From Parcubacteria group bacterium (GTDB lineage Bacteria > Patescibacteriota > Minisyncoccia > Phycocordibacterales > Phycocordibacteraceae): a stretch of DNA of 64,000 nt. The notes under the pieces were generated by a model. It had not been told where the DNA came from, searched no databases, and saw nothing but the letters and a program-made list of their open reading frames with translations. Within the stretch, counting starts at the first letter, position 1, and each line of letters starts with the position of its first letter. The DNA lies in assembly GCA_028286615.1 (NCBI GenBank), contig JAQBRG010000003.1:147406-211405 (forward strand), written 5' to 3'. Of the stretch, positions 15,229-31,277 are shown in pieces. The translations under genes were made by a program, and so were the position numbers.

Positions 15229-15314
15229 AGTAATGATAGGTAGTAAGTACTTCTTTAGAATAGACCGGAATGGAAACGCGTCAATAGACCTCTAGCGACT
15301 ATGGGGAAAAGATT

Positions 15315-15764: not shown

Positions 15765-16236
15765 CTGAGCCGGCTACTGCACCCGCAAAACTGCTTACCA
15801 GGAGGTTCACAAGCCCCCAGACCGAGAACATCACGAAGAACGCGATAACCCCCCAAAGCATCAGATTCTTGCCCTTTGCGCGACCCTCCTCGCTTTGATC
15901 CAAGAAGAAGAATTGCACCATACCGATTAAGAAGGCTATAAATGTAAGCGCGTATATGAGCGGGACGACGCTGTTACTTACGAAAGGCACTATCACTTTG
16001 TATACCAAGCGTGCAAAAGTATTATTTACCTTTCCTGTTGAAACCACCTCGCTAACCTCGCAGTTATTGTTAAAACTACAATCGCTTACGCAGCGATAGC
16101 CGCCTTCATAAAAACGACAAGAGGTGCCATCAGGACAAGCACTTACGCACGTCTCAGCTGCTTGAACACTTGGTAGGTTCGGAAAGGCGAAAACACCCAG
16201 AAGGAGTATCGATAGACCAAAAAAACGCAGACTCAT
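15757..16236 (-). CDS. pilin-like small 2-TM protein, paralog D with Cys-rich insert
   Basis: Signal peptide, then CVSACPDGTSCRFYEGGYRCVSDCSFNNNC, then the conserved module. Overlaps paralog E by 4 nt. Confidence 0.65.
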   Translation of the reverse strand: MSLRFFGLSILLLGVFAFPNLPSVQAAETCVSACPDGTSCRFYEGGYRCVSDCSFNNNCEVSEVVSTGKVNNTFARLVYKVIVPFVSNSVVPLIYALTFIAFLIGMVQFFFLDQSEEGRAKGKNLMLWGVIAFFVMFSVWGLVNLLVSSFAGAVAGSGA

Positions 16237-16622
16237 AGAGTATTTGCTGTTGCTTGGATAACAGCACTAATCGCCTGGGCTCCAAGGAGAATAAGTCCGC
16301 CGATAACAGTCCAGATGAGCATGGAACGTGCATTCTTAAGCTCTTCCGCATTTCCCTGCGCGAGCACGAATTTAAACCCGGTGTATACCAGCATAAGTAC
16401 TAGGACAATAGTACCTATCTCAATAACCGCGCTCAGAATAACGTTCAACAAGTCGTTGAGATTATTAATATTCTTAAGCGGATTCTGTAAACCTGTTGAT
16501 GGTCCAGGATTAACCGAGTCAATCTCTTTATTTCCTGGATTCACTGAGTCCACCTCAGCTGCAGCGAAGAAAGGTACTGAGAATGTAGTTGCCAGAAGAA
16601 AGATAAATAGAATTCGATACAT
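16233..16622 (-). CDS. pilin-like small 2-TM protein, paralog E (divergent; start taken at internal Met MYRILFIF)
   Basis: Signal peptide, tandem EVDSVNPGNK/EIDSVNPGPS repeat, divergent version of the 2-helix module. ATG lies 5 nt after the stop of the upstream SBP-like gene. Confidence 0.55.
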   Translation of the reverse strand: MYRILFIFLLATTFSVPFFAAAEVDSVNPGNKEIDSVNPGPSTGLQNPLKNINNLNDLLNVILSAVIEIGTIVLVLMLVYTGFKFVLAQGNAEELKNARSMLIWTVIGGLILLGAQAISAVIQATANTL

Positions 16623-16626
16623 AGTG

Positions 16627-17934
16627 TTAGTGGAGTGCGGCATCAATACTTTCGCTTGCGGACAGCAGCGCCTCATGCACTTGCTGGCGTCCGCTCGTTA
16701 TGTTTCCAATCATAGCAGCGAAGACACTATCGGTTTGTGGAGGTGCTGGGGACAGCCACACCTTTGCAACCAGCACTTCTGGATAAAAGACCGGTTCATA
16801 AAGATCGTCTAGCGAAGGCGTGAGCGCTGAGCGAAGAGCAGGAGCCATGCCAAGCGCACGAGCAACACCAGGAGCGATTGCTTTTCCAGTTAGTCCTGAG
16901 GCAACACGATACGCGCCGGTTGCATTTCGAGCAGTCTTTGGAATTACAAAAGCGTACACGCGTCCATACGTAGTGCGTGTGGCTGCGGTTGAAGGTTGTG
17001 GCACTACGCTCATATCAAAATCAAGATTCGGGTTCGCAGCTTTGAGTGAGTTGCGTTCTGATGCGTAGCCGAAGTAGAGCGCCAGGTCTCCTGAGAGAAA
17101 GGCTTGTCTCGCATCTGGGAGCGAACGATTCCAGGAATACACGGTTTTTGCAGGATTAGAAAACTCAGTATAGAAGCGAATAGCTGATTCGCTTCCACTG
17201 GTGCCGAAGTTTCCGTCTGTTTGTTTTGAGAGGGTTGAATACACTCCTCCTCCAGCGTCTCTGCTTGTTATGGCAGCTCCAGCTTGAAGAAGAAGGAGCG
17301 AGAGGATAGCCCGAGAGTTCCCTCCGTTCTCATAACTTCCAAACGAAACGAGACTGCGCGTTATGGTCTGGCCATTCGTTTGCTGCACGATACGAGGTGC
17401 AAGACCCATAACCGCTTCCCAGGTCTGAGGAGGCTCAGCAACACCGCTGGCAGACAATATAGAGCGGTTGTAGTACATAACAAGCGGATCAATAGCGAAT
17501 GGAATGCCGTAGCTTCCCGCACTGGTTAGATATATTTCTGAAACCGGAAGGAAAGAATCCTTGAAGGTACGTTCTGAGATGGTGGAGAGCGGTATGGGAG
17601 AAAGCTTGTTCTCTTCTTGAGCTAACTGCTCTTGCGATATAAGAAGGAGGTCGGGACCGTTGCCTGAAGCAATGGCATCTGCAACCTCCCCATCGAAGTT
17701 CGAGATTGATTTCTCTACGTACGAAACGGTTGCATATTCCTGATGGTCACGTCTGAGTTCGCTTAGTTGTACTTGGAGCACTTCTTCTGGAAGCGTTCCC
17801 CAAATAGTAACGGCACCTAGTGGCTTTACGCTTGTACCGAAACCTTTGAAGGTTGCAAAGAGAACAAGGCCGATAACCGCAAGAAAGCCGAAGACGGAGA
17901 GAAGGATAATCTGAAAGGGTCGTTGGGTTTGCAT
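16627..17934 (-). CDS. membrane-anchored extracellular solute-binding-protein-like protein (SBP family 1-like)
   Basis: N-terminal TM anchor. Body resembles sugar-type periplasmic binding proteins (DLLLISQEQL, GIPFAIDPLVMYYN). No permease or ATPase adjacent. Confidence 0.65.
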   Translation of the reverse strand: MQTQRPFQIILLSVFGFLAVIGLVLFATFKGFGTSVKPLGAVTIWGTLPEEVLQVQLSELRRDHQEYATVSYVEKSISNFDGEVADAIASGNGPDLLLISQEQLAQEENKLSPIPLSTISERTFKDSFLPVSEIYLTSAGSYGIPFAIDPLVMYYNRSILSASGVAEPPQTWEAVMGLAPRIVQQTNGQTITRSLVSFGSYENGGNSRAILSLLLLQAGAAITSRDAGGGVYSTLSKQTDGNFGTSGSESAIRFYTEFSNPAKTVYSWNRSLPDARQAFLSGDLALYFGYASERNSLKAANPNLDFDMSVVPQPSTAATRTTYGRVYAFVIPKTARNATGAYRVASGLTGKAIAPGVARALGMAPALRSALTPSLDDLYEPVFYPEVLVAKVWLSPAPPQTDSVFAAMIGNITSGRQQVHEALLSASESIDAALH

Positions 17935-17940
17935 AGAAAG

Positions 17941-18471
17941 TTACGGAGCTGTAAACACAATACTATAGTGGTGTGGGCCTGCACGGAAATCTTTAACCTT
18001 ATGGAAGCCCCCTGTAATAAAAAGTTCTTCAGCAACATGCTCGGGTACCACGCGATGCGGAAGCGGACCCATACCTCCATATGCTCCTGCCCAATCTATA
18101 ACAAGTAACCGTCCTCCCGGCTTTAAGATGCGTTTGATTTCTGCAATTGCTTCCTGTTGGTGATCAAGTTGAAAGAGCGTGTTCGAAAGAATAACCACAT
18201 CAAGTGCGTGGTCTTTGAGCTTCGTACCTCCTGCTGTCTCGAAGTTCCCCCAAACGGTTTCGATATTCTTGAATCCGCGCTGCTGTGCGAGATCTCGAAT
18301 ATGCTTAAGAATATCTTCTTGGATATCAACGGCATACACGCGTCCCTCGTCTCCAACCATAGCGGCTGCAGCAACAGCGTAGTGTCCAGACCCAGCACCC
18401 AGGTCTCCCACTTTCATACCTTCTTTAAGACCCAGCTGCAGAACATTGCTCTGCGGGTTAGAGAAATTCAT
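17941..18471 (-). CDS. class I SAM-dependent methyltransferase
   Basis: Motif I VGDLGAGSG, motif post-I VYAVDIQED, LLVIDW. Start placed at internal Met because the longer ORF would overlap the upstream gene. Confidence 0.7.
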   Translation of the reverse strand: MNFSNPQSNVLQLGLKEGMKVGDLGAGSGHYAVAAAAMVGDEGRVYAVDIQEDILKHIRDLAQQRGFKNIETVWGNFETAGGTKLKDHALDVVILSNTLFQLDHQQEAIAEIKRILKPGGRLLVIDWAGAYGGMGPLPHRVVPEHVAEELFITGGFHKVKDFRAGPHHYSIVFTAP

Positions 18472-18532
18472 TACTATAAAAATAGCACGGGCCACGCGAT
18501 GCGCAGCCCGTGTTGGGGACGAAATACGTATT

Positions 18533-18718
18533 CTAGGATTCAATGCGGTTTCCTTCTGAGTCTGCGACCCACCCCTCCTTGACGCTCTTGGCCACCTTGA
18601 GTGCTTGAACTCGATCGGGGTAGTCAGCAACGACTCGCTTTTCCCCGGCAACCACCCTGTACATGCCCTCGGGAGCTTTTAGCTCGTGACGCATAGGCGT
18701 CCTTCTAATAACAGTCAT
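18533..18718 (-). CDS. hypothetical small protein (61 aa), GC-rich
   Basis: ORF-track ORF. Composition protein-like. Preceded by a near-perfect hairpin CCCGGTGT-atatc-ACACCCGGG. Confidence 0.4.
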   Translation of the reverse strand: MTVIRRTPMRHELKAPEGMYRVVAGEKRVVADYPDRVQALKVAKSVKEGWVADSEGNRIES

Positions 18719-18844
18719 TGGCTTACTCCTTGCTGCCCGGGTGTGATATACACCGGGAACTTCTTGCTGTCTACAGTTACAGATAAAGAATCGACCCCAA
18801 CATGCGTGAGCAGGCTGAGGTCGAGATTGGGTAACCGAAACGTC

Positions 18845-19312
18845 TTAGTGCGGTTGCTGCGGTCCGGGTTCTCCTTCTCTAAAACCAACTATTATTACGC
18901 GACCCTGTGGCGGAGCTTTGACATAGCCCATAGTCCAGTCCGGCGCAACATAGCATCCGCGTTCTTCCTTGCCGTCCGGAAGTTCCTTGCACATTTCAGC
19001 CTGAAACAGCGCGAATGTGATTTGGTGAAGCAGCGCTGATTCGCAATAGAGGTCACGAAGGCTTACGGCAGGCGCTCCGTCACTGTTGCGCTCTGCCTCA
19101 TCGATCTTTACTCCCACGTCGGCAGCTATCTTTGAGTAGCGAGCTGCAAGCGTAATCAGCTGCTTAATGCCCGTTGTGGCGGGACCGACAGGTGTTATCT
19201 CGCAATCTGCGGGTGGCATACTGTCAATAGGTATGTAGTCCTCGGGTTTAATCGAGGCAAGATCCGCAAGGATTCGATTGAGCACATGGCTCGAAGTCGT
19301 GATGTCAGACAT
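18845..19312 (-). CDS. hypothetical protein (155 aa), GC-rich
   Basis: ORF-track ORF. No recognisable motif. Confidence 0.45.
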   Translation of the reverse strand: MSDITTSSHVLNRILADLASIKPEDYIPIDSMPPADCEITPVGPATTGIKQLITLAARYSKIAADVGVKIDEAERNSDGAPAVSLRDLYCESALLHQITFALFQAEMCKELPDGKEERGCYVAPDWTMGYVKAPPQGRVIIVGFREGEPGPQQPH

Positions 19313-19386
19313 TCAAGTTCCCCAAAATAGAAAATTGCAGGCACAGTTACAGCCTGCAATTACTATATAATATAAATATTTCTTGT

Positions 19387-21855
19387 CTAGAGCGCGACCA
19401 TCGACGCGATACTGTCTCCCTCGCGCATCTTCATGATGCGTACCCCCTGTGTGGCACGTGAGAGCGAAGGAATCTCTCCAGCTGAACAGCGGATAACCTG
19501 TCCTTTCTTAGAAATAACAACGATTTCCTCTTCCTCGCCTTCAATACCAAGAAGCACCTTGGCACCGATAATCTTTCCGGTCTTTGGCGTAACCTCGGCA
19601 GTCTTAATACCTGAGCCTCCACGTCCCTGTACTTTGTATTCGCTAAGAGGTGTCTTCTTGCCGTATCCCTTATCCATAATAACGAGGAGGTCTGCCTTCT
19701 TAACACCTGCCGGCACTACTTCAGCAGAAACGATGAAGTCACCTTTCTTAACGGTCATACCGCGCACTCCAGCTGCGGTGCGGCCCATGGCGCGTACTTC
19801 GCCTTCGTCAAAGCGGATACTCTGTCCTTCAGACGTAACTATAGAAATGCTTTCTCCTTCAGAAGCGAGGTGTGCGGACACGAGACGGTCTTTGCCCTTA
19901 AGGGCGATAGCGATGATGCCGGAGCGGCGTACATCAGAGAAGCTCTTCGCTTCAACCTTCTTAACAACACCCTCGTCTGTAACAAGGAAGACGGACATCG
20001 CGTCGCGTGCGGCTCCCTTAGGTATCGCGAGTACGCTCGTTACCTTCTCTTCGCCTCCAAGCTGCAAGAAGTTCATGATGCTCTTGCCCTTCGTTGCTTT
20101 CTTTCCTTCAGGAAGCTCGTACATCTTGAGCTGGAATGCTTTGCCTTGGTCTGTGAAGAAGAGGAGCTCGGAGTGTGCTGAAGCTTTGAGGAAGTGCGTA
20201 ACCACATCTTCTTCCTTGGTAGACATGTCTATAACACCCACGCCTCCACGCTTCTGAACTTTGTACTCGTCTGGGTTCGTACGCTTTACGTAGCCGCCTG
20301 CAGTGAGCACGAGTACAGACTCTTCGTCTGGTACGAGGTCTTCTACAGAAATATTCTTTACGCCTCCCTTAACAATCTTGGTACGCCTGTCGTCTCCATA
20401 CTTGTCTCGTACATCAACGAGCTCTGCGCGTACAACGGTAAGGATGTTCTTCTCGGAAGAAAGGATCTTCTTGAGGCGCGCGATTATGATCTGGAGTTCT
20501 TTGAGTTCGTCCTCAATCTTCTGGCGCTCAAGGCCTGCAAGCGTCTGGAGACGCATCGCAAGAATGGCTGCCGTTTGAATTGGTGTGAACGCAAACTTCT
20601 TTATGAGCGCTTCGGACGCGGTTGGTACGTCTTTGGATGCGCGGATTATCTTAATAACCTCATCGATGTGATCGAGCGCTTTAGAAAGTCCGAGGAGAAT
20701 GTGTTCGCGTTCTTCTGCTTTGCGAAGTTCGTACTCGGTTCGCTTACGCACCACAATCTTTCTATGGGCAATAAAGCTTTCAAGCATGCCCTTAAGAGAA
20801 AGGGTCTGCGGTACGCCATCAACAAGCGCGAGCATGTTGTAGTGGAAGGTGCTCTCGAGTTCGGTGTACTTATATAGGTTGTTGAGAACGGCCTGAGGGT
20901 GCGCCGTTCCTTTAAGCTCAACGACCACGCGAATGTCGCTGGTTGATTCGTCTCTAAGATCCTTGATGCCTTCAAGCTTCTTGTCTCGTACGAGGTCTGC
21001 GATGCGGGTTATAAGGTCTGCTTTGTTAACGCGGAAAGGAATGGAGGTAATAACAATGTTAGTTCCCTTCTTCTCTTCAATTATTTCAGCCTCTCCACGA
21101 ACCACAACGCCGCCACGTCCGGTTGCGTATGCTTGTTTGATATCTGTCTGGTTAAACGCGATGCCTCCCATTGGGAAGTCTGGACCCTTCACGTATTCAA
21201 GAAGATCTTCGGTTGTTGCTTCAGGCTCATCTATGAGACGAGTTGTTGCGTCAACAACTTCGCGCAAGTTGTGCGGAGGAATGTTGGTGGCCATACCGAC
21301 AGCAATACCAAGTGCGCCATTCAAAAGAAGGTTAGGAGCAGCAGCTGGAAGCACGGTTGGTTCCTGTTTAGATCCGTCGAAGTTAGGTGCCCATAGGACG
21401 GTTTCCTTTTCGAGGTCTCGGAGCATTTCGTCTGCCAGGCGAGACATCTTAGCTTCGGTGTACCTGTATGCAGCGGCTGGGTCTCCGTCGATAGAACCAA
21501 AGTTTCCCTGTCCAGAGACAAGCGGATAGCGGGTTGAGAAGTCCTGCGCGAGCTTAACCATCGCATCGTACACGGAAGCGTCTCCGTGCGGGTGATAGGA
21601 ACCGAGCACCTCTCCGACAACGGTAGCTGACTTACGGAACTTGGCCGTAGGAGTGAGGCCGGTCTGGCGCATCGCGTAGAGAATGCGGCGGTGCACAGGC
21701 TTGAGTCCGTCACGCACATCAGGAAGCGCGCGCGAAGTTATAACCGTCATGGCGTAGTCGATGTACGACTGACGCATCTCAGACGTAATCGACTGATTGA
21801 TGATGTTTATGCGCGGAGTCTCTTCAGGAGCCGGTACTACTTCTTTCTTAGCCAT
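19387..21855 (-). CDS. gyrA: DNA gyrase subunit A
   Basis: N-terminal [34 protein letters not shown] with active-site Tyr region, and beta-pinwheel C-terminal repeats. 822 aa. Confidence 0.95.
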
Positions 21856-21860
21856 ACAAA

Positions 21861-22220
21861 TTAAAACGGTATCACCGTGCGGGTGTCTTCTTTAGTATCA
21901 AAAGTCGAAGTCTCTTTCACATCAACCACGGTTAGCGTTGGTTTTGTTGAAGTTGCACCAACCGCAGCGCCCGCGGCTCCAAGAAGCTGAGAGAACCCGG
22001 TCTTCGTTTCTGTGTATGCCTGCTTCACATCGCTTCCCGTTCCTGTGTTTGAAGCAACCTGTGTTGGAGCAAGCGTAAGAGCGCCTGAGCTTGCCATAGC
22101 AGCAGCCCATCCAATAGCAACGAGACCTGTGAGAAGGCCTGATGTAGCAATGGCAATACGATGCCTGACATGGTCTGGCTTTTCTCGTAGACGATCGATG
22201 TGATGGACTAGGGTAGCCAT
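21861..22220 (-). CDS. small membrane protein, hypothetical
   Basis: One TM helix followed by Ala/Thr/Gly-rich segment. Immediately upstream of gyrA. Confidence 0.5.
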
Positions 22221-22225
22221 ACTAG

Positions 22226-22915
22226 TTAGGGAGTTATCACTATGATAGCACCGTCCTTTTCTGCAGCATCCTTCTTCTTAAGAGTGAGCTTGTCCAACCT
22301 CTCTTCCTTGCCGCTGCCCTCCTCCTTTATAAAGGCTTCGAGTGCCTTTGGTTCCCCCATCCCATTCCAATGCATTGGGATGATGATCTTAGGCTCGAGG
22401 GACACCGCAAGCTTTGCCGCTTCCGCTGCGTTGAGCACCCCGTCGCCCCCAACCGGGACGAACAAGATGTCGATCTCATCAATTGCTTCGCGCGCCTCAT
22501 GTGACAATACGGTATCAGAAAGCGCGCCTAGGTGCACGAGTGTCATTCCTTCGAGAGTAACGGCGTATACCGTGTTAACCGCATCGAGTTTTGCGAGCTC
22601 TCCTTTCTTAGTAGCGAGGCCGTACTGGCTCTTCGTTAGGAAGCCCTGGATAGTTACGCCTGAGTGCTCGTATTCGCCAGGGCCAATAATAGCGAACGGT
22701 TCCTTTCCTCCGAAAGAAACCTCATCCACGCCGTTCATATCTGGATGGTTGCGGGTTACGAGCGCAATGTCTGCTCCAAAGCGCACAGCAGGAAGAGTCC
22801 CGCCTTTAGAGATGGGATCGAATACGAGGGTTAGGTCCCCGAACGTAACTTTGAAGCATTGCCCGCCGTGGTGGGTGATGACCATTACATGAATTATACC
22901 CTGAACACTGTGCAC
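22226..22915 (-). CDS. metallo-beta-lactamase-fold hydrolase
   Basis: N-terminal ITHHGGQCFKV..DLTLVFDP matches the MBL-fold beta-strand/His motif region. Start may be the internal Met MVITHHG. Confidence 0.7.
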   Translation of the reverse strand: MHSVQGIIHVMVITHHGGQCFKVTFGDLTLVFDPISKGGTLPAVRFGADIALVTRNHPDMNGVDEVSFGGKEPFAIIGPGEYEHSGVTIQGFLTKSQYGLATKKGELAKLDAVNTVYAVTLEGMTLVHLGALSDTVLSHEAREAIDEIDILFVPVGGDGVLNAAEAAKLAVSLEPKIIIPMHWNGMGEPKALEAFIKEEGSGKEERLDKLTLKKKDAAEKDGAIIVITP

Positions 22916-23038
22916 AGGCGAGTCCTTGCAGCTTCATGAAGTAGGCATAGAGTAGAGAGGTTCGAGGTGCCTTATACAGGAAGACCTCAACACGTATCGA
23001 AGGGACATCCTGTCTTTTCGAGCAACTGGAGCCAGACC

Positions 23039-23179
23039 ATGAACAGACCACCGCCGTCCGTGAGCGCCGTCGCTCAAGCCCCTGCCGCACCGAGCATCTC
23101 CGCCCTGGCCGCTGACCGCGCCACCGAGCACCCCGACGTCGACCGCGGCCGCCACGCTGGGCACATCGCCGGCGGCTAG
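23039..23179 (+). CDS. 46-aa Ala/Pro-rich micro-ORF in GC-rich island
   Basis: ATG with GGAG 9 nt upstream. Followed by a 15-bp perfect palindrome and a terminator. Confidence 0.3.
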   Translation: MNRPPPSVSAVAQAPAAPSISALAADRATEHPDVDRGRHAGHIAGG

Positions 23180-23205
23180 CCTCCACTCCTGGATGATCTA
23201 GCCGC

Positions 23206-23252
23206 ATCAAAGGACTCTGTGGTGCGACGTGTGAGGCCTCGCACCACAGAGT
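23206..23252. repeat. 15-bp perfect inverted repeat (GGACTCTGTGGTGCGA..TCGCACCACAGAGTC)
   Basis: Seen directly. 11-nt loop. Could be a hairpin terminator or a protein-binding palindrome. Confidence 0.7.
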
Positions 23253-23443
23253 CTGGATCTCTTCATTCTTCTACTCCAACCACTATCTAGCTCTGCTACG
23301 ATACACAACGCCACGCTTCCCCAAGCGCGGCTTTTTCATTTTATTGACCCGACCCTAAACCCGTGTTAATCTACTCCCATCGCGTCTTCGGGCGCGCTGT
23401 TTATTTCACAACAGAATATAAATCTGAAGAGGGACGTTTACGC

Positions 23444-23587
23444 ATGAGCGGATACAGTCAACAGCAAAAACAAATGCAGCCTCTCCCGGACAAGGTGCGG
23501 GAACAACCCGTCACCGGTCACGGCAGCAAGGGCGCCGGCGTTCACCCGCAGCCGCATCAAGGCACCGCGGGTCGTTCCATCCGCTAA
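23444..23587 (+). CDS. 47-aa Gln/Pro-rich micro-protein (MSGYSQQQKQMQPLPDKVREQPVTGHGSKGAGVHPQPHQGTAGRSIR)
   Basis: Promoter-like TTGACC-17-TAATCT upstream. SD GAAGAGGGA about 9 nt before ATG. Confidence 0.35.
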   Translation: MSGYSQQQKQMQPLPDKVREQPVTGHGSKGAGVHPQPHQGTAGRSIR

Positions 23588-23696
23588 GGCGGGGATCTAG
23601 ACCAAAATATCGGTCTAGCTAGTCTGGCTTCGCGCCTGCTAGATACCGGGAGGAGCAAGCAATTGCTTCTCCCGAAGACCGCCAACAGCAAAAGGG

Positions 23697-23822
23697 ATGG
23701 ACTACATGTTTAAAGACCTTCCACAGCAACGGCCGCAAGACTTTCCGCTTCCGAGAAGCGCCAAGCAGCCGCAACACCAAGGCAAGCTTCTGGAACCCAA
23801 GAAGAAAACGGGGAGCCAATGA
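23697..23822 (+). CDS. 41-aa Gln/Pro/Lys-rich micro-protein (MDYMFKDLPQQRPQDFPLPRSAKQPQHQGKLLEPKKKTGSQ)
   Basis: Followed directly by the perfect hairpin GGGGAGCCAA-tgat-TTGGCTCCCC. Shares a QPxHQG-like motif with the previous micro-ORF. Confidence 0.3.
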   Translation: MDYMFKDLPQQRPQDFPLPRSAKQPQHQGKLLEPKKKTGSQ

Positions 23823-24026
23823 TTTGGCTCCCCGGACTACCCTCTTCAGATTAGCTCTTTCACAAAGTCCACCACGGTGGGCTTTTGTTATATAGCCTAT
23901 TTACTTACTTTCTTAGCCTTTTAACCCATATACCTATTGACATTTGATATCTAAAGTGCTATCGTTCATTCCAGAGAAAGGCTCGCGACCCGCGACCCTC
24001 TACCTTGATATTTAGGAGAGACATGA

Positions 24027-25094
24027 GTGAATAAGTCCCAAACCGAAGCTCGCCCCAATCTTGCTGACGCTCTCCAAGGAGAGGCCGTGATGCCCCCGCT
24101 CTGCTTCCGCATGAACGGTACGGGCAAGCTGGAAGAAGGCATCGAGCTTGAGATGAGCCACCCGCTTCTGTCAGTCGGCAAGATGGCCCTGTTCTTCAAC
24201 AACGCGTCCTACGTGTTGCGGAATCTGAACAACGGCTGTCTCTATCAGCCGCAACCCGAGAAGAACACCGGCCTCGTTCGGCGCGCCGTGGTCGAATGGA
24301 AGGAACTGGAGGGCAAAAAGCCCTTTCCGCTCCTCACTCGTCCGCAAGGCCAGACCGAAAACCTGTTGGCCCACGTGTGCGCCAACATGGAACTGCCCGT
24401 CGGCGCTCAGCTGAAGGAACGGTTCTATGCCGGCATCATCACCACGGCCAGCGTCATCGGCACCGATAAGCTCGGTCGCGAAATGCTCCTTTCCTTCGGG
24501 AAGGGCGACATCGCGGACGTGTTCTACAAGGACGGCAGCGTGAAGCGCGTCGTTCGCGAGAACGATGCTCTGGTCGTCGACGTCCTCACCATCGAGGACC
24601 AAGCCGACCTGCGCATCGACCGCGTGCGGAACGAACTCACCGCCCTCGAAAAGATGCCAGTCGGTGACGAACGCGCCAAGATGGAGGACGGCCTCTACCA
24701 TGAGGTCATCACCATCCTGACCATCGGCGGCAAGCGCTCCAGCTACATCTTGAAGTCGGCCTTCGACTTCCTCGATGACGCCTGCGACGAGAGCAAGCTG
24801 CGCGCCGGCGTTCGCGCCCGTGCGCTCGATATGCTTCGGCAGATCGACCCGGCCTATGCGCTGCGCTTCGGCATCAGCACACAGGCTGGCGGCCCTTCCA
24901 AGCGTGGGTCCGGTGATTTCACCACTGCCTCCGTGCCGTCTTCGGACAGCATGGTCCGCAAGGGTCCACCGGCGGCTCGAAAGGCCAAACTGGCTGAACG
25001 CGCCAACCGCGACCGCGAAGCTCGTTCGCGCATGGCTGGCTCCTCGGGAGGCGGCAAGCAGGACAAGGGCGGTAACAAGAAGAAGGGCAAGTAA
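24027..25094 (+). CDS. hypothetical 355-aa protein with basic disordered C-terminal tail, GC-rich
   Basis: GTG start 6 nt after SD TAGGAGAG. Promoter-like TTGACA-17-TATCGT upstream. C-terminus KGPPAARKAKLAERANRDREARSRMAGSSGGGKQDKGGNKKKGK. No recognised domain. Confidence 0.65.
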   Translation: MNKSQTEARPNLADALQGEAVMPPLCFRMNGTGKLEEGIELEMSHPLLSVGKMALFFNNASYVLRNLNNGCLYQPQPEKNTGLVRRAVVEWKELEGKKPFPLLTRPQGQTENLLAHVCANMELPVGAQLKERFYAGIITTASVIGTDKLGREMLLSFGKGDIADVFYKDGSVKRVVRENDALVVDVLTIEDQADLRIDRVRNELTALEKMPVGDERAKMEDGLYHEVITILTIGGKRSSYILKSAFDFLDDACDESKLRAGVRARALDMLRQIDPAYALRFGISTQAGGPSKRGSGDFTTASVPSSDSMVRKGPPAARKAKLAERANRDREARSRMAGSSGGGKQDKGGNKKKGK

Positions 25095-25371
25095 TAGCCC
25101 CTCCTAAATACAATATCCACTGAACCTTATAAGGCCCTCGACGTATCGAGGGCCTTAATCTTTATCTACATATGCTACGTCCCCTACAGATCCTTGAGTC
25201 CAGGCATCAAGGGCGCTCAACTTCAACATTGGGCGCCTTTTCTTTTACTTAAAATTAGAACATATCCACAGGCTCTTGACAATTCATGAAGCTCGTGATA
25301 ATTTCCTCTCACCGACTGCTTGAGGCGCGAGCTTTAAGAAGGGACGGTACGAACCTCGAAGGAGACGACCC

Positions 25372-25656
25372 ATGAAAAGGCTCCATCTCATCGGCGCGAT
25401 AGCGGCGATGTCTTGTCTGACGACGGCGCGCGACGCCGCAATGGCCGGCAGCGACAGGGTGCATTCCAAGACGACGACCGACGACGGCACCGCCATGACC
25501 AGTATCAGCAACGGCATCGGCAACACCGGCGGCGCGGGCGGCCACATCACCGGCCATGACCCCTATGTGAACCTGACCTCCATCGCGCATCCGCTCGACG
25601 AACTCGGCCGCGGCGCCGACTCGGCCGATCCGGACATCACCGTCCTGCTGAACTAG
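25372..25656 (+). CDS. small secreted protein (signal peptide, Gly/Thr/Asp-rich mature part), GC-rich
   Basis: N-terminal signal MKRLHLIGAIAAMSCLTTA. Promoter-like TTGACA upstream. Followed by two strong hairpin terminators. Confidence 0.55.
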   Translation: MKRLHLIGAIAAMSCLTTARDAAMAGSDRVHSKTTTDDGTAMTSISNGIGNTGGAGGHITGHDPYVNLTSIAHPLDELGRGADSADPDITVLLN

Positions 25657-25668
25657 AACCTGGTCGCC

Positions 25669-25766
25669 GACGGCTCTGTCTGAGTCATCTCAGACAGAGC
25701 CAGGCAAAAGTCCTCAAGGCAAAGCCTCGAGGCACGGGCGCACGATTTCTTCGGATCTCGTGCGCC
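25669..25766 (+). terminator. two consecutive rho-independent terminators
   Basis: GGCTCTGTCTGAG-tcat-CTCAGACAGAGCC and GGGCGCACGA-loop-TCGTGCGCCC followed by a T-run. Confidence 0.7.
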
Positions 25767-25895
25767 CTTTCTCTTTACCTATATATGTGCTACAAATCCC
25801 CTATCGCGAGCGCGTATATAAGCCGCGAGAGGGCTATCCCTGGGAGCGCAAGCAAACAGTACCCTCCGCACACAACGCGCCGCACTTTTTAATTC

Positions 25896-27041
25896 ATGCC
25901 TGAAGAAACCGCTTCCCCGGAGGCGCTTGAGGAGCGTAAGCCCTCAGCTCCGGTAAGCACTATTACAATTGAACCCGGCCATCCAATGGCGGGGATGATT
26001 GACGCTATCGTCACTCCTCCTCGTGTTGGAGACTTGGTTGAAGGAACCATAATCGAGCTCGTCCGCGGACGTCTCTATGTAGACCTTCCTCCATTTGGTA
26101 CGGGTATTATCTACGGCCGCGAGTATCTCAACGCTGCAGACGTGCTTCGCAAGGCAAACCCTGGAGACACCATAACCGCAAAGGTTGTGGACGTTGCTGG
26201 TATCGAAGGATACATCGAGCTTTCCCTTAAGGAGGCTCGCCAGGCAGCTATCTGGGGCGAGGCTGAGCAGGCTATCGTTGCACAGACCATCTACAACATT
26301 CCTGTTGAAGAAGCCAACAAGGGCGGTCTTATCCTTTCATGGCAGGGCATCCAGGGATTCCTTCCTGCATCCCAGCTTTCAAAGGACCACTACCCACGTG
26401 TTCCTGAGGGAGACAAGGACAAGATCTTCTCTGAACTTCAGAAGCTTGCCGGCGTATCTCTCGCCGTTCGCATCATCACAGCCGATCCTAAGGAAGGAAA
26501 GCTTATCTTCTCTGAGCGTGTTGGAGACGAGGAGCAGGAGAAGGCAAACCTCGTAGACAAGTACCAGGTTGGCGATGTTGTTGAGGGAGAAGTTACAGGA
26601 GCTGTAGACTTCGGTGTCTTTGTGAAGCTTGAGACCGGACTTGAAGGACTCGTACACATCTCAGAGCTCGATTGGGGACTCGTTGAAGACCCACGCGTAC
26701 TCTTCAAGGTTGGCGACGCCGTTAAGGTTAAGGTTATTGAAGTTAAGGACGGAAAGATCTCTCTTTCTATCAAGGCACTCAAGGAGAACCCTTGGAAGAC
26801 CGCTTCAGACCGTTACAAGAAGGGTATGGATGTTACCGGCGTTATCATCAAGTACAACAAGCACGGTGCACTCGCTTCTATTGAAGAAGGCGTTGCCGGT
26901 CTCGTACACATCAGCGAGTTCGCTACTCCAGCAGAACTCCGCGAGACACTTGAACTTGGAAAGACGTATCCGTTCAGCATTACCCTCTTCGAACCAAAGG
27001 ACCAGCGCATGACGCTCTCCATGATTGAGAAGAAGAAATAA
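25896..27041 (+). CDS. rpsA: 30S ribosomal protein S1 (four S1-domain form)
   Basis: Repeated S1 domains (GxV.G.V....fGvFV.L..g.eGLvHiSE). 381 aa. Confidence 0.9.
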   Translation: MPEETASPEALEERKPSAPVSTITIEPGHPMAGMIDAIVTPPRVGDLVEGTIIELVRGRLYVDLPPFGTGIIYGREYLNAADVLRKANPGDTITAKVVDVAGIEGYIELSLKEARQAAIWGEAEQAIVAQTIYNIPVEEANKGGLILSWQGIQGFLPASQLSKDHYPRVPEGDKDKIFSELQKLAGVSLAVRIITADPKEGKLIFSERVGDEEQEKANLVDKYQVGDVVEGEVTGAVDFGVFVKLETGLEGLVHISELDWGLVEDPRVLFKVGDAVKVKVIEVKDGKISLSIKALKENPWKTASDRYKKGMDVTGVIIKYNKHGALASIEEGVAGLVHISEFATPAELRETLELGKTYPFSITLFEPKDQRMTLSMIEKKK

Positions 27042-27056
27042 GGAAGACAGATAAAA

Positions 27057-27090
27057 GAAACCCCCGACTTGGTCGGGGGTTTCTTTTATT
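27057..27090. terminator. bidirectional terminator between rpsA and pth
   Basis: GAAACCCCCGAC-TTG-GTCGGGGGTTTC flanked by A-runs and T-runs. Confidence 0.8.
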
Positions 27091-27688
27091 TCGCAGTGTT
27101 CGCTTCGAGCATCGCTTTCTCTATCCCGTCTGTTACGAAATACCTCGCAGCAACAGCAGCGCGCTTGAGTACCTTCTTAAGCTCAGCCTCTTCAGTTGGT
27201 TTGAACTTCCCTATTACGTGATTGATTACCCTGTCTTCTCCCGAAACCTTCTTAACTTTTCCTTTTGCAGTTGCGCCTGAGATGCCAATCTTCATCTGAG
27301 CGAATTCCTTGGTCTTGAGAGTGCGCATAACGCTTTCGATACCTTTGTGTCCTCCGCTACCTCGTCCAAAGGTTGTCATCTTGATAGTACCGAGAGGAAG
27401 ATCTAGTTCGTCTCGGATAATAAGAAGTTTCTTAGCGGCTGGCTTGCTGCGCACAAGTGCTGCTGCGGATGTGCCCGAGTGGTTCATATATACCTCGGGA
27501 AGTACGATACTAACCTTCTCTCCTCCTATAGTTCCTTCTGCAACAAGTGCTTGAGCCGTCTTCTTAAGTTTGAAATCTGTAAATCCTTCTTCTGAAGCCA
27601 GGAGTTCTGCAACCATGCGCCCAGCGTTATGCCGGGTTTTTGCGTATTCGCCTCCGGGATTCCCAAGACCCATGATTACGTATGCCAT
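27086..27688 (-). CDS. pth: peptidyl-tRNA hydrolase
   Basis: N-terminal GLGNPGGEYAKTRHNAG and catalytic His region. 200 aa. Confidence 0.9.
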   Translation of the reverse strand: MAYVIMGLGNPGGEYAKTRHNAGRMVAELLASEEGFTDFKLKKTAQALVAEGTIGGEKVSIVLPEVYMNHSGTSAAALVRSKPAAKKLLIIRDELDLPLGTIKMTTFGRGSGGHKGIESVMRTLKTKEFAQMKIGISGATAKGKVKKVSGEDRVINHVIGKFKPTEEAELKKVLKRAAVAARYFVTDGIEKAMLEANTAK

Positions 27689-27721
27689 TAGAAAGATTGT
27701 ATCAGGTTTAAGAAAAAGGAT

Positions 27722-27749
27722 TTGACTAGAGAGTATGGGAGCGTATAAT
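27722..27749 (+). promoter_or_regulatory. near-consensus sigma70-type promoter (TTGACT-16 nt-TATAAT)
   Basis: Seen directly. Points away from pth toward the 3' end of the convergent MazF-like gene. Confidence 0.6.
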
Positions 27750-27756
27750 TCTTATA

Positions 27757-27875
27757 CAAATGCCGAGAGGCATCGGAGACTTCTGGCGCGAGCTGGGAGA
27801 TCGCAAGCCAACGAAGGTCACGTACCGTCGTTGGCCAAAATAGCAACAAGCCCCTGTTATGCAGGGGCTTGTTGG
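27757..27875 (+). ncRNA. candidate ~120-nt sRNA (promoter to terminator unit); alternatively a 27-aa micro-ORF MPRGIGDFWRELGDRKPTKVTYRRWPK
   Basis: Bounded by the promoter above and the hairpin AAGCCCCTG-ttat-CAGGGGCTT at 27848-27869. No SD before the internal ATG. Confidence 0.3.
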
Positions 27876-28262
27876 TTAAAATAAAAGTCTTTTGATTCTT
27901 TCTTTCATTAAGGAGAAGTCTGGCCGATTCATCTTTCCTATGTAGCGGTTAAATCTCTTCGTGCTTATTAAGTGCACATGAGTTATTAAAGCCACCCATT
28001 TATCACCTTTATTTTCAAATAAAAAATAATAAGGGAGATCTTTAAAGGTTGAGGTTGTGGGTACGATGAGTGCCAGACCTTTTCCAAACGTTTTGAGCAC
28101 AATTATTGGCCTTTCGTATAAGGCTTTCTTACCGTCTTGCTCGTCGCCTATATTTAAGCCTACTGAGCACCACCATATATCTCGCTCATACACGATCAAC
28201 TCAGATTTTTCTTCTTCTATTCTTTTCTTCTGCTCATTCCACGCATCAAAATCCTTTTGCAT
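27876..28262 (-). CDS. MazF/PemK/Kid-family endoribonuclease toxin-like protein, AT-rich, no cognate antitoxin gene seen
   Basis: ERDIWWCSVGLNIGDEQDGKKALYERPIIVLK...LIVPTTS matches the MazF/PemK pattern (DIVW..., G.EQ.G.RP.VVL, V.P.TS). AT-rich. Confidence 0.7.
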   Translation of the reverse strand: MQKDFDAWNEQKKRIEEEKSELIVYERDIWWCSVGLNIGDEQDGKKALYERPIIVLKTFGKGLALIVPTTSTFKDLPYYFLFENKGDKWVALITHVHLISTKRFNRYIGKMNRPDFSLMKERIKRLLF

Positions 28263-28353
28263 TGCACTAACCTACAATATTGCGATATGAACAAGATGGT
28301 CGCGTAATAAGAAAAAGTTGACGCGCCGAAAGAGAGGAATACAATGAGCGGTA

Positions 28354-28893
28354 ATGCGAACCTTGCGAGAGATACTTTCATTCGTCATCCTCGCCGTCAT
28401 CATTGTTGTTCCTATCCGTTTGTTCATCGCTCAACCATTCGTTGTTGAAGGTGAAAGCATGCATCCTACGTTTGAAAGCGCTGACTATCTCATCGTTGAC
28501 GAACTCTCCTACCATCTCCACGCACCGCAACGCGGCGACGTTATTGTTTTTAGATATCCAAACGATCCGAAAGTGTTTTACATAAAGCGCATCATCGGTC
28601 TTCCTGGAGAAACCGTGAGTGTTAAGGATGGGAAGACAACTGTTAAGAAAGTTGATGGTACTGAAATCGCACTTGATGAGCCGTACGTAGTCTCTGAAGA
28701 CGCCACATACACCAACGACAGCGTTCTTGGTGCAGACCAGTACTTTGTTATGGGAGACAACCGTCCTCGCAGCTCAGATTCTCGTATCTGGGGACCACTC
28801 CCTAAGAAAGATATTGTAGGTCGTGCTTTCATACGCCTTCTTCCTGCAGGATCAATAGGTATTCTTCCCGGAAGAATCGAACTACCACAATGA
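28354..28893 (+). CDS. lepB: signal peptidase I
   Basis: S26 motifs GESMHPT (Ser box), RGDVIVF, GDNRPRSSDSR. Confidence 0.85.
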   Translation: MRTLREILSFVILAVIIVVPIRLFIAQPFVVEGESMHPTFESADYLIVDELSYHLHAPQRGDVIVFRYPNDPKVFYIKRIIGLPGETVSVKDGKTTVKKVDGTEIALDEPYVVSEDATYTNDSVLGADQYFVMGDNRPRSSDSRIWGPLPKKDIVGRAFIRLLPAGSIGILPGRIELPQ

Positions 28894-30056
28894 GTACAAC
28901 CGCCTCCGTACCTGCCGGCGTACGGCCAGACGAACTTTTGAAGCGTGCGCACGCTATCGGCAACTATTACGGCTTCACGCCGCTTTCAGTCCTTGCTGCA
29001 AAACAGAAAGGGCATGGTGCTCGCGCTCCCTATCCTGAGAACATGGGACTGGACGCGCTGGATCCTGTTGCCCGCGAAGTTGTTACACTTCTCAAGCAAG
29101 TGCGAGACATGGGTCTAGCTCCTTCTAAAGAGCGCCCTCTCTTCCTTTGGCACTCTAATGCTGCATACGGACGTCCTGCACCTAAGCAGATAATTATCCA
29201 GTTCCATATTCTTGGTGTAGAGCATGCTATAGCTGACGCGGTACTTATTCGTGCAGTTCGGGCACTAACCATGGACTTCGCAAAAGGCGACGTACGCTTA
29301 CGTGTGAACAGTATGGGAGACAAAGAGACTCGTGGACGTTTCGCACGTGAACTTGGCACCTTCTTCAGAAAGCATGGAGCAACTCTTCCTGCAGACTGCG
29401 TTTCTTGCGCACGCACCGACGTGTTCCAGGCAGCGGAGCTTCTTGTATCAAACAAGGATGCAGAACTCCCTTCTCCAACAGACCATCTTTCTGAAGCCAG
29501 CCGCAAACATTTTGAGAATGTTCTTGAATACCTTGAAGAGACCGAGACTCCGTACGAACTTTCTCCAGATCTCCTTTCTCGCGGTACCGCGTGGAGCGAA
29601 ACCTGCTTTGAGATAACAGGCAACAGCGGAGCGCTTCCATTTCATGCATGGGGTTCACGATATTCAGAACTTGCTCGTCCTTTCTGGAAGAGTCCAGGAA
29701 CGTCTATTGGTGCGGTTATTCGTATCCAGACTGAAGGACGCGAGACTATCGCTCCTATTAAAGAACGTACGAATCCTCGTTTCGTATTCGTACACATTGG
29801 AGACGAAGCAAAGCGCGAGAGTATGAAGATGGCAGACGATCTCCGTCGTGCACGTATTCCTATGACCCAAGCAATTGGCATCGCCTCTCTTACCGAACAG
29901 ATGCGTCTTGTTGATGAGACCGATCCTCCATACCTGCTTATTATGGGTCGCAAGGAAGCTCTAGACCGCTCCGTTATTCTTCGTGAGCGCGCTACTTACA
30001 CCGAGTCTGTTATTCCTCTTGATTCTCTTATAGATAGATTGAAGATGGTTGCGTAA
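28890..30056 (+). CDS. histidyl-tRNA synthetase-like protein with degenerate catalytic motifs (HisZ-like paralog or highly divergent HisRS)
   Basis: C-terminal class-IIa anticodon-binding domain (RFVFVHIGDEAKRESMKMADDLRRARIP...LLIMGRKEALDRSVILRER). Middle resembles HisRS (VNSMGD..R..F..L). Motif 2 region reads LFLWHSNAAYGRP instead of FRYERPQxGRxR. ATGA overlap with lepB. Confidence 0.6.
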   Translation: MSTTASVPAGVRPDELLKRAHAIGNYYGFTPLSVLAAKQKGHGARAPYPENMGLDALDPVAREVVTLLKQVRDMGLAPSKERPLFLWHSNAAYGRPAPKQIIIQFHILGVEHAIADAVLIRAVRALTMDFAKGDVRLRVNSMGDKETRGRFARELGTFFRKHGATLPADCVSCARTDVFQAAELLVSNKDAELPSPTDHLSEASRKHFENVLEYLEETETPYELSPDLLSRGTAWSETCFEITGNSGALPFHAWGSRYSELARPFWKSPGTSIGAVIRIQTEGRETIAPIKERTNPRFVFVHIGDEAKRESMKMADDLRRARIPMTQAIGIASLTEQMRLVDETDPPYLLIMGRKEALDRSVILRERATYTESVIPLDSLIDRLKMVA

Positions 30057-30446: not shown

Positions 30447-30585
30447 ATACCGCGCCCGAGATTCGTACAGGATCTCGGGCGTTCTCATATTAGTACCTCT
30501 GGATTGAAGCTCTTTTACAGAACTTGACAAAAGTGTAACTTATATGTATCTTATAGACAGGGTTAACTTGGATAAGGAGCCATCT

Positions 30586-30909
30586 ATGATGGTTGTTTCC
30601 GCAAAGAATCTGAACTCGATCGATTGGGTCGCCATTTTCTTCGGCGTCCTGCTGCTGGCTCTCGCCGGCCTCATCGCCTACGGCACGTTTCCATTGCCAG
30701 GTGTGACGGGAATCGATATGGACATCTTCCACGTGATGTTCGGACTCGGTCTCGCCGACATGGGGGTCGCGATCGGCATCCTGCTGCTGCTCTTGGGCAC
30801 CTGCCGCAAGCAAGCAGCCGAGATGCTCACCGTCCCGCTGCTTCTCATCGCGGCCGGAGGTATGCTGGTTGCAGCTCTCGCCCTCGGACACATCGCCGAG
30901 CTGATCTAA
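30586..30909 (+). CDS. small GC-rich membrane protein, hypothetical (start at second in-frame Met with SD AAGGAG)
   Basis: Promoter-like TTGACA upstream. Three TM helices. GC-rich codons. Terminator hairpin at about 30931-30968. Confidence 0.55.
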   Translation: MMVVSAKNLNSIDWVAIFFGVLLLALAGLIAYGTFPLPGVTGIDMDIFHVMFGLGLADMGVAIGILLLLLGTCRKQAAEMLTVPLLLIAAGGMLVAALALGHIAELI

Positions 30910-31016
30910 GCCAGCACAAGGTCATCGGCAAACGCTCGCGTTCCCCCTCCTGGGACCGCGAGCGTTTTAACATCATTTCTGGACAGAAAACCTATATCTA
31001 TGCTATTCTCGGCCCT

Positions 31017-31277
31017 ATGAGTAACGCAACACGCGTAGAGGTTCGTCGCGGCAAGAACGAGAGTTCTGCTTCGCTTCTTCGACGTTTTTCCCGCCGCGGC
31101 CAGACCTTGGGCCTTGTTCGTGCGCTTCGCAAGATCCGCTACTACAGCCGCACCAAGTCTAAGAACGTGCAGCATGCCCGCGCCATGGTTAAGGGCGAGC
31201 GCATCGCTGAATACAACGAGCAGGTTAAGCTCGGCAAGATCGATCCAGCGGCTCGCAAGACCCGCGGCCGAAAGTAA
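31017..31277 (+). CDS. rpsU: 30S ribosomal protein S21 (with C-terminal extension)
   Basis: VEVRRGKNESSASLLRRFSRR..GLVRALRKIRYYSRTKSK aligns to the S21 consensus V.VR.NE...AL.RFKR. The ORF-track ORF 30624-31277 is an upstream over-extension of this gene. Confidence 0.7.
   Translation: MSNATRVEVRRGKNESSASLLRRFSRRGQTLGLVRALRKIRYYSRTKSKNVQHARAMVKGERIAEYNEQVKLGKIDPAARKTRGRK

Follow-up and report, generated by a model that had tools for sequence, protein, structure and literature searches.

The locus described here raises the question of why the spacer between two core genes of a small bacterial genome should be richer in G+C than its surroundings. The stretch concerned, 22916-25895, lies in a window of 64,000 nt (the whole stretch of DNA that was analysed, positions 147,406 to 211,405 of contig JAQBRG010000003.1 in the Parcubacteria group assembly GCA_028286615.1), between the gene for a hydrolase of the metallo-beta-lactamase (MBL) fold and rpsA, which are divergently transcribed around it. 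A preliminary description, made from the letters alone, took it for a foreign island acquired from a high-GC donor, possibly an actinobacterial one. The reading favoured here, to which we give a probability of about 0.68, is that the region is a native, recombination-prone variable spacer holding self-contained, fast-evolving and lineage-specific genes that are probably strongly expressed. Its two principal residents are a gene for a protein of 355 aa, hereafter X, and a gene for a hypervariable small protein, which has 94 aa in the window.

The GC content had been judged by eye, and the computed values agree with that judgement. The stretch has a GC of 0.576 against 0.494 in the remaining window, and in 2-kb windows across 23001-26000 the value reaches 0.583-0.589, the peak of all 64 kb. 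All five open reading frames (ORFs) reported earlier are also present, namely three micro-ORFs of 46, 47 and 41 aa, X and the 94-aa ORF. However, the rise in GC is not uniform. It is found within the ORFs only, which have values of 0.53-0.67 (0.62-0.67 in four of them), whereas the spacers between them (1,144 nt) have a mean of 0.50, which is the genome value, and the part from about 25757 to 25895 is the conserved promoter and leader of rpsA and lies outside the island. The excess is found at third codon positions. The GC content at these positions (GC3) is 0.79 in X and 0.86 in the 94-aa ORF compared with 0.48 +/- 0.08 in the 54 other long ORFs of the window, which makes these two the GC3 outliers (z about +4). 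For the first, second and third positions the values are 0.64, 0.43 and 0.79 in X and 0.58, 0.53 and 0.86 in the 94-aa ORF. The principal features of the right part are the following.

23937-23965, + strand: promoter of X, TTGACA-N17-TATCGT with TG upstream (extended -10), 10 of 12 consensus positions
23973-24001, + strand: stem-loop AAGG-NNGC-loop-GCNN-CCUU in the 5' untranslated region (5'UTR) of X, followed by UUGA and an AGGAG Shine-Dalgarno sequence
24027-25094, + strand: ORF of X, 355 aa, GC3 0.79
25130-25240, + strand: two terminator-like hairpins 3' of X (25130-25157 and 25209-25240)
25260-25304, + strand: conserved promoter module ACATATCCnCAGG-N-TTGACAATnnATGAAG...TGnTAATTT of the small protein, with TTGACA at 25276 and the -10 box at 25299-25304
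25372-25656, + strand: small protein of 94 aa, GC3 0.86, Sec-like N-terminus MKRLHLIGAIAAMSCLTTARDAAMA/G
25672-25767, + strand: three hairpins in the 3' region of the small-protein unit, the last of which (25736-25767, with a T-run) is a likely terminator
25786-25895, + strand: promoter of rpsA (-10 box TGTGCTACAAAT) and structured leader, made up of helix P1 (25828-25832 with 25863-25867), GCUAUCC (25833-25839), hairpin P2 (25840-25859) and then UAC

A search with the rpsA product recovered 80 species-level genomes at 77-88% identity, nearly all of them titled as metagenome-assembled genomes (MAGs) of the Patescibacteria group (Paceibacterota, Parcubacteria, Kaiserbacteria, 'uncultured Saccharibacteria'). 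The order gyrA, gene for a 119-aa membrane protein (P119), MBL-fold hydrolase gene, gap, rpsA and pth is kept in all loci long enough to be read. The gap measures 67 to 2645 bp in the relatives and 2980 bp in the window. Clustering of its ORFs showed that nearly all gap contents are species-specific and mostly unrelated to each other, and the peak GC of the gap is usually above that of the flanks in the relatives as well. With flanks so conserved and contents so different, the flagged stretch is a lineage-wide variable spot and not a one-off insertion. The view of it as accessory rather than housekeeping DNA is upheld, the contents being small independent units of promoter, ORF and terminator. 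As regards its left border, the MBL-fold gene (- strand) was listed with a GTG start at 22915; the proteins of the relatives start with MVITHHGG, corresponding to the ATG at 22885, so that the true intergenic region probably begins about 30 nt further left.

X lies at this site in six other genomes, being found in the MBL-rpsA gap of loci L001, L007, L034, L085 and L089 and upstream of rpsA in L076. Presence and absence among siblings, proposed earlier as a check on the island, thus gives a divided answer: the contents of the site do vary between species, but X keeps the same site in these six, and the relatives that carry it have the same composition there. The closest pair of X sequences, L007 and L085, is also the closest pair of species. 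The identity between them is 95% for gyrA and rpsA, 89% for pth, 86% for MBL and 78% for P119, but 46-48% for the X proteins. Estimated by the Nei-Gojobori method, the synonymous divergence (dS) of X is 0.99, within the 0.64-1.73 of the five flanking genes, whereas its non-synonymous divergence (dN) is 0.50 against 0.04-0.20 and its dN/dS 0.51 against 0.04-0.16. The non-synonymous rate is therefore some 3-12 times that of the flanks (about 12 times that of gyrA and rpsA and about 2.6 times that of P119). As the dS falls within the range of the flanking genes, X is at face value as old as its neighbours, which argues against a recent arrival from a high-GC donor.

The same can be said of the codon composition. 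The GC3 of X is above the mean of its neighbours in 12 of 12 genomes, whose own means run from 0.30 to 0.70. Among the genes measured there that have about 100 codons or more, none exceeds X in GC3 by more than 0.002. In L089 the adjacent small ORF, of 46 aa, has a higher GC3 than X. The values for X and for its neighbours are 0.79 and 0.48 in the window, 0.74 and 0.45 in L001, 0.86 and 0.57 in L007, 0.76 and 0.56 in L034, 0.83 and about 0.68 in L085, 0.80 and 0.68 in L089, 0.80 and 0.51-0.74 in L084, 0.73 and 0.45 in L088, 0.74 and 0.48 in L090, 0.69 and 0.50 in L091, 0.81 and 0.70 in L095, and 0.39 and 0.30 in L093. The offset is positive in every host while the absolute value follows the host down to 0.39, which is no donor signature and points to a force specific to the gene. 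In L084, where X precedes tuf and rpsJ, its codon choice resembles that of these two genes. The next-highest GC3 values among the long ORFs of the window (0.57-0.65, at 57382-57972, 13680-14483, 58455-59120 and 14794-15243) belong mostly to proteins that have no Pfam match, and it may be that the lineage-specific genes of this genome have a raised GC3 in general. In addition, an ORF of 121 aa at 30544-30909 (+ strand) has a GC of 0.63, 0.36 and 0.74 at the three codon positions and coincides with a local GC bump of 0.59 at 30750-31249.

These observations are best explained if the stretch is one species' filling of an MBL-rpsA spacer that is variable throughout a family of Paceibacteria, a group of the candidate phyla radiation (CPR). 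It would consist of about five short, independently transcribed cassettes, each made up of a GC3-rich ORF with a sigma-70-type promoter and a leader before it and a hairpin terminator after it, followed by the promoter and leader of rpsA. Two of the cassettes would be native, lineage-restricted and very fast-evolving genes. X would always move as a single-gene transcription unit that brings along a strong promoter and a 5'UTR stem-loop of its own, and the small protein would combine a promoter conserved across species, and often a Sec signal, with alleles made mosaic by recombination. The GC-richness would then be a third-position trait of these gene families in every host and not the mark of an import. 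Two forces may hold it high. Selection linked to high expression or to mRNA stability fits the consensus promoters, the 5' stem-loop, the strong Shine-Dalgarno sequence, the dedicated terminators and the codon table of L084; GC-biased gene conversion in genes that recombine often fits the mosaic alleles of the small protein. X itself would bind a polyanion (RNA, the ribosome or DNA) through its basic tail, or use this tail as an export signal.

Several points weigh against this interpretation. The proportion of synonymous differences in X (0.55) is near its composition-limited ceiling, so that the argument for equal age is suggestive and replacement by a divergent allele is possible. X occupies the MBL-rpsA site in only 6 of the approximately 80 species sampled, and it may have been gained repeatedly. 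Moreover, the four-fold degenerate codons preferred by X in the window are CTG, GTC, GCC, GGC and CCG whereas those of rpsA are CTT, GTT, GCT, GGA and CCT, and the two genes agree only at two-fold sites (ATC, AAG, AAC, GAC, TTC). This mismatch is unlike simple translational selection and would fit a foreign or a gene-conversion signature. The strong expression is deduced from promoter quality, Shine-Dalgarno sequence, terminators and codon bias, the homology among the small proteins consists of short, low-complexity matches together with position, and the 47- and 41-aa ORFs have nothing more than their open frames in their favour.

The expression signals of X are shared well beyond the window. 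A TTGACA-N17-(TG)nTAnnnT promoter lies upstream of members of the family at at least five distinct genomic locations, and a 5'UTR hairpin is predicted for all nine family loci examined (the window, L001 at about 9950-9980, L085, L007, L089, L084, L088, L090 and L091) by single-sequence folds in which the stem sequences differ, with individual z-scores that are modest (-0.9 to -3.3). RNAalifold gave no structure for this 5'UTR on a MAFFT alignment because the variable hairpins were misaligned. Since promoter and hairpin are kept wherever X sits, the unit of inheritance would be the complete expression cassette, and the stem-loop could be an mRNA-stabilising or autoregulatory element. As to the consensus-like TTGACA promoters mentioned in the preliminary description, TTGACA does occur at 23937 and 25276, in both cases conserved across species, and TTGACC at 23344, but only the site at 23937 passed a strict consensus scan. 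The start of X deserves a comment, noted at 24027 in the window and at 1095 in L003. Public gene calls place it at Met22, giving 334 aa. Nevertheless, the motif LQGEA is conserved in the homologues upstream of Met22, which supports the longer form, putatively initiated at GTG; the ATG at 24024 meets an in-frame TAA after three codons.

A word-indexed search with X returned an identical copy and one protein of 40% identity only, the latter encoded at the identical position between MBL and rpsA on a 283-kb contig. An exhaustive profile search returned 142 representative clusters (at 50% identity), 39 of them below 1e-30 and nearly all of 330-370 aa. Each of the 20 clusters inspected consists of one member sequence, and most are found on one or two contigs. 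In a metagenome scan with a 10-sequence alignment one locus was found, apparently L034. All titled records are MAGs of the Patescibacteria group. Apart from the MBL-rpsA site, members lie before tuf-rpsJ (L084), near clpB (L088), near a gene for an extracytoplasmic function (ECF) sigma factor (L090), between dsbA-like and RNase-H-like genes (L091) and among other housekeeping genes (L093, L095); wherever the neighbours could be read, X is a lone gene amid housekeeping genes. The window contains no paralogues of X or of the small peptides elsewhere. Neither X nor the small ORFs match anything in Pfam, PHROGs, PADLOC, NCBIfam or the sequences of the PDB. For X this agrees with the first description of it as a protein of no recognisable family, and by its sequence it belongs to no described family.

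The AlphaFold2 model of X, built on a 46-sequence alignment, has a predicted local distance difference test (pLDDT) of 90.2 and a predicted template modelling score (pTM) of 0.78. Its parts are, in order, an all-beta domain of residues 25-188, a second domain of five helices (189-288), a disordered linker (289-315), a helix (316-336) and a Lys/Gly-rich end. In this model the all-beta domain is confidently predicted and resembles no solved structure, and the helical half is generic. The BFVD library of viral folds gave no match at E <= 0.001, and the idea of a viral capsid-like protein was abandoned as neither fold nor sequence supports it.

The basic tail is real, with 16 Lys or Arg among the last 50 residues. 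Across the family, variation is lowest in the C-terminal 45 residues (column entropy of 2.2-2.3 bits compared with 2.45-2.64 for the folded domains), and all 46 aligned members have a tail with a net charge of +6 to +13, the body being about neutral. X has no signal peptide and no transmembrane segment (maximum 19-residue hydropathy 0.99). Most plausibly the tail would contact RNA, ribosomes or DNA, and possibly the hairpin in its own 5'UTR. Alternatively it might be a type IV secretion signal, although its charge is not specific to secretion substrates and basic tails are equally typical of nucleic-acid-binding proteins.

The second resident has a promoter that is conserved across species. 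The module ACATATCCnCAGG...TTGACAATnnATGAAG...TGnTAnnnT is present on the + strand of the MBL-rpsA gap in 16 species including the window, with or without X, and each copy is followed by one GC3-rich ORF (0.83-0.98) of 34-135 aa. In the window the product begins with K2 and R3, has hydrophobic residues at 4-19 (Kyte-Doolittle about 1.8-1.9) and shows AMA/G at 24-27. These features, judged by eye and by a hydropathy scan and shared by the homologues, make the signal peptide proposed earlier a putative one. The mature part is rich in Gly, Thr, Asp and Ala and contains the motifs TSISxGIG, GGAGG and GHIT. The long forms (window, L042, L005, L017, L028 and L070) all have a basic n-region, a hydrophobic core and AxA, followed by a Gly/Asp/Thr/Ser/Ala-rich part with the motifs [MLV]TSI[SA]xG[IVF]G, GGxGG and GH[IV][TA]; short forms start with MR..HPPGH[VI]G. 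Pairwise similarity is modest, and a profile made from five sequences adds two proteins (E 6.5e-10 and 1.2e-8, in 5.8 billion sequences). Judging from the N-terminus, the small protein is probably exported by the Sec pathway and would act outside the cell. One of the members so retrieved carries the name of a MAG that has an X homologue at a different locus (locus tags KA104_01490 and KA104_01755), so that the two are not an obligate pair, and in at least 10 species the module occurs in a gap that lacks X.

Recombination at this spot is the best explanation for the mosaic structure of the alleles. In L007 and L085 the two flanks of the allele are 85-100% identical, on one side the upstream terminator and promoter, on the other the seven final codons and about 300 nt from there to rpsA. 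The approximately 140 nt of 5'UTR and ORF body between these flanks are unalignable. The 5' half of the L085 allele matches L008, L012 and L004. A diversity-generating retroelement was considered and discarded: no pair of template and variable repeats was found in 22800-26000 and no reverse-transcriptase domain in the flagged ORFs scanned, and the variable part is the 5'UTR and ORF body and not a C-terminal repeat. A nearly identical block of about 150 nt lies between the small ORF and the rpsA promoter in L085 (9345-9500) and L007 (9710-9860), and a weaker version in L001 (11370-11500). It reads ...ATGGAGGTGACCGACGTGACACCCTGACGAGC-hairpin-GGGCTCGTACCCGCAAGGGTCA, with nested hairpins, at least one compensatory change and a possible mini-ORF of 8 codons. 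It has no Rfam match, and in the window three other hairpins occupy the corresponding position. A hammerhead ribozyme was also rejected for the CUGACGAG element found 3' of the small ORF in L007 and L085, which has no GAAA core and no Rfam match.

At the right end of the stretch about 130 nt (25757-25885) show 72-91% DNA identity in about 35 related species. A motif search placed the rpsA leader upstream of rpsA in 78 of 79 loci. Its architecture across these loci is a -10 box, a P1 of 4-5 bp, a near-invariant GCUA(U/A)CC, the hairpin P2, UAC and the 3' strand of P1; P2 varies in length and commonly has a CC/GG step and a GNRA loop. On a MAFFT alignment RNAalifold gave no structure because the variable hairpins were misaligned, and pairing was instead counted from the anchors in 71 distinct sequences, a procedure in which the parsing of the strands favours pairing. 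Canonical pairing was 0.78 in P1 and 0.81 in P2, compared with 0.59 and 0.64 after shuffling of partners (maxima 0.66 and 0.69 in 1000 shuffles). The variable positions show three to five pair types and both helices covary. In Rfam nothing was found at or near threshold in this region of the window and in two related loci, and the leader is unmatched. The E. coli rpsA leader, which is bound by S1, is an autoregulatory ribosomal-protein mRNA leader, and the present one is a good candidate for a response to S1.

The left half of the stretch contains the three micro-ORFs and most of the remaining signals.

22926-22953, + strand: promoter-like site of the first small ORF, TTGCAG-N16-TAGAGT, proposed from its sequence
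23039-23179, + strand: 46-aa ORF (MNRPPPSVSAV...RHAGHIAGG), ATG start, within a 70-aa GTG ORF (22967-23179), GC3 0.72
23213-23253, + strand: perfect hairpin with a 15-bp stem, 3' of the 46-aa ORF
23310-23331, + strand: hairpin and T-run after the preceding hairpin, likely terminator
23344-23396, + strand: promoter-like TTGACC-N17-TAATCT, then a UUCG-loop hairpin (23381-23396), found in the window and not across species
23444-23587, + strand: 47-aa Gln/Pro-rich ORF, putatively coding, GC 0.71, 0.48 and 0.67 at the three codon positions
23697-23822, + strand: 41-aa Gln/Pro-rich ORF, putatively coding
23809-23885, + strand: hairpin overlapping the end of the 41-aa ORF (23809-23834) and terminator with a T-run (23864-23885)

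The five hairpins listed at the outset (23213-23253, 23809-23834, 25130-25157, 25672-25701 and 25736-25767) all exist as perfect inverted repeats. The first of them had been called a 15-bp perfect palindrome; it is a 15-bp inverted repeat with an 11-nt loop, and the single true palindrome of the stretch is one of 12 bp at 23657-23668. A uniform scan of the window for perfect stems of at least 9 bp with loops of 3-12 nt placed 5 of 23 hairpins inside the stretch, which makes up 4.7% of the length and would be expected to hold about 1.1.

It is conceivable, if on balance improbable, that this left half is mostly non-coding, the 46-, 47- and 41-aa frames being open by chance in small RNA genes or cassette remnants whose hairpins would be the functional part; such a view is compatible with a native variable spacer. 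No homologues of the 47- and 41-aa ORFs were found in about 95 related loci, the promoter- and terminator-like elements of their units find no counterpart across species, the 41-aa ORF ends within the hairpin at 23809-23834, hairpins are dense and the gap contents of relatives are mostly unique. As reported earlier the two ORFs have in common a QPxHQG motif, and also a 21-nt repeat, but the whole units align poorly, and an origin by tandem duplication was dropped as only short motifs are common to them. These units may be young or decaying cassettes or small RNAs, and the odds that the two ORFs encode peptides are roughly even. On the other hand, GC is raised within the ORFs and not between them, Rfam gave no match, and the N-terminal and C-terminal GHI motifs of the 46-aa ORF recur in peptides from other species. 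Its MNRPP... N-terminus resembles the L007 peptide, its C-terminus reads GHIAGG, and it has weak similarity to short ORFs of L005 and L011 (E 0.03-0.04), so that it may be a paralogue, a short member of the family of small peptides with the GH[IV] motif. The promoter-like site before it has the ATGAAG spacer motif in common with the conserved peptide promoter at 25276 and resembles the TTGACAATnnATGAAG module.

A different meaning would be given to the locus if it served interaction with, or antagonism of, a host. X would be an effector with a C-terminal signal for a type IV secretion system (T4SS) and the Sec peptide a second surface or host-directed factor, both in an arms race. CPR bacteria are commonly episymbionts, and substrates of the VirB/D4 type have positively charged C-terminal signals. 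The dN/dS of X of about 0.5 against 0.04-0.16 in the flanks, the hypervariable and mosaic alleles of the small protein, and a tail that is the most conserved and a constantly charged part of X would all be in keeping with such a role. So would the three tandem VirB2/TrbC-like T4SS_pilin genes (PF18895) located 6 kb away at 15315-16676 (- strand), next to a gene for a solute-binding protein; the block recurs in relatives, upstream of gyrA in L001 and L085. Nevertheless we consider this explanation unlikely. The window shows neither a secretion ATPase nor a coupling protein, a basic tail would serve nucleic-acid binding equally well, and X and the small protein are not co-inherited, as X lies elsewhere in one MAG and, in at least 10 species, the gap holds the peptide module but no X. 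Pfam, PADLOC and NCBIfam revealed no toxin, enzyme or immunity domain. A cassette of the toxin-immunity or polymorphic-toxin kind, akin to the effector/immunity unit of an early suggestion, is made less likely by this and by the independent occurrence of the two genes. A bolder version makes X the founder of a CPR-specific class with a new beta fold, expressed at a high level, with a tail for VirB2-type delivery into the host or for docking to RNA or ribosomes, and together with the secreted peptide forming a host-interaction locus of episymbiotic Paceibacteria that recombines into mosaics and has GC3 as the footprint of gene conversion. This we find similarly doubtful.

The recent horizontal island, in which the GC3-rich ORFs would keep the codon usage of a high-GC donor, is largely refuted and is given very little weight. 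It can draw on the extreme GC3 of X and of the 94-aa ORF, on a codon choice in X unlike that of rpsA in its own genome, and on the variability of the site between species. Against it stand the orthologues of X at the same site in six other genomes, the agreement of X with the flanking genes in dS for the closest pair, a GC3 offset that scales with the host, the native GC of the spacers and the peptide promoter module at the matching site in 16 species. Moreover, the contexts recovered for members of the family all resemble that of the window, amid housekeeping genes. Nor were signs of mobility encountered. The interval 18000-30000 contains no tRNA, and long direct repeats able to mark the ends of an island are absent; tblastn of phage and plasmid collections gave no match and a motif scan of viral contigs no relative; and the flagged ORFs and flanking genes scanned had no match to integrase or transposase Pfam families, no search having been aimed at an integrase. 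That a high-GC contig was joined chimerically into a CPR genome, for which the compositional contrast alone would speak, can be dismissed as next to impossible, since an independent Logan assembly from SRR13312974, another run, is 100% identical over 22996-26263, spanning the junction of the island and rpsA and confirming the right side, and the order MBL-X-rpsA recurs in five independent MAGs or contigs.

A second variable site is present nearby, between pth and lepB. In the window it holds a PemK/MazF-like toxin gene (27876-28262, - strand) with a GC of 0.37 and a GC3 of 0.40, the lowest GC of 12 genes measured near the island, and other genes are found there in L001, L085 and L089. In appearance this site comes closer than the flagged stretch to acquired DNA of the classical, AT-rich kind.

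If the native variable spacer is the right interpretation, a segment of deviating GC or codon usage in a small CPR genome is not necessarily foreign, and here it would mark native fast-evolving genes. In a group whose lineage-specific genes are mostly blank, the locus offers three testable objects: the family of X proteins of about 350 aa, a probably exported small protein and an rpsA leader outside Rfam. The GC3 offset across hosts of differing GC could help to tell apart, in bacteria, the effects of selection on expression and of GC-biased gene conversion. Should X and the small protein indeed act at the interface of symbiont and host, they would be entry points to the host dealings of uncultured bacteria.

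Known systems resemble the locus in part. As in the substrate signals of VirB/D4 T4SS, the C-terminus of X is conserved, partly disordered and rich in Arg and Lys in an otherwise neutral protein, and pilin genes are nearby. In contrast to them no coupling protein was seen in the window, and the tail has a conserved helix and a Gly/Lys end that would fit RNA or DNA binding equally well. The small protein recalls class II microcins and bacteriocins in being small, rich in Gly, Ser, Thr and Asp, provided with a putative N-terminal export signal and strongly variable, a likeness of composition only. It differs from them in that its N-terminus looks Sec-like and not like a double-glycine leader, no immunity, modification or ABC-export gene is adjacent, and it is not known to be antimicrobial. 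The rpsA leader shares with ribosomal-protein mRNA leaders such as that of E. coli rpsA a conserved structured 5'UTR directly upstream of rpsA, two covarying helices and invariant single-stranded motifs. It differs in having no Rfam family and an arrangement P1-GCUAWCC-P2-UAC-P1' specific to this lineage, with S1 binding that is putative. Finally, comparative bacterial genomics has made known chromosomal hotspots or 'islets', where genes turn over between conserved core genes. The present site is likewise a single intergenic site between core genes with different genes in each species, and its mosaic alleles indicate recombination. Unlike such hotspots it gave no tRNA, phage or plasmid signal in the searches made, none of which was aimed at an integrase, and its contents are lineage-restricted and GC3-rich rather than AT-rich. 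Moreover, at least two of its residents appear to be vertically inherited, and one of these keeps its promoter while its coding body is replaced.

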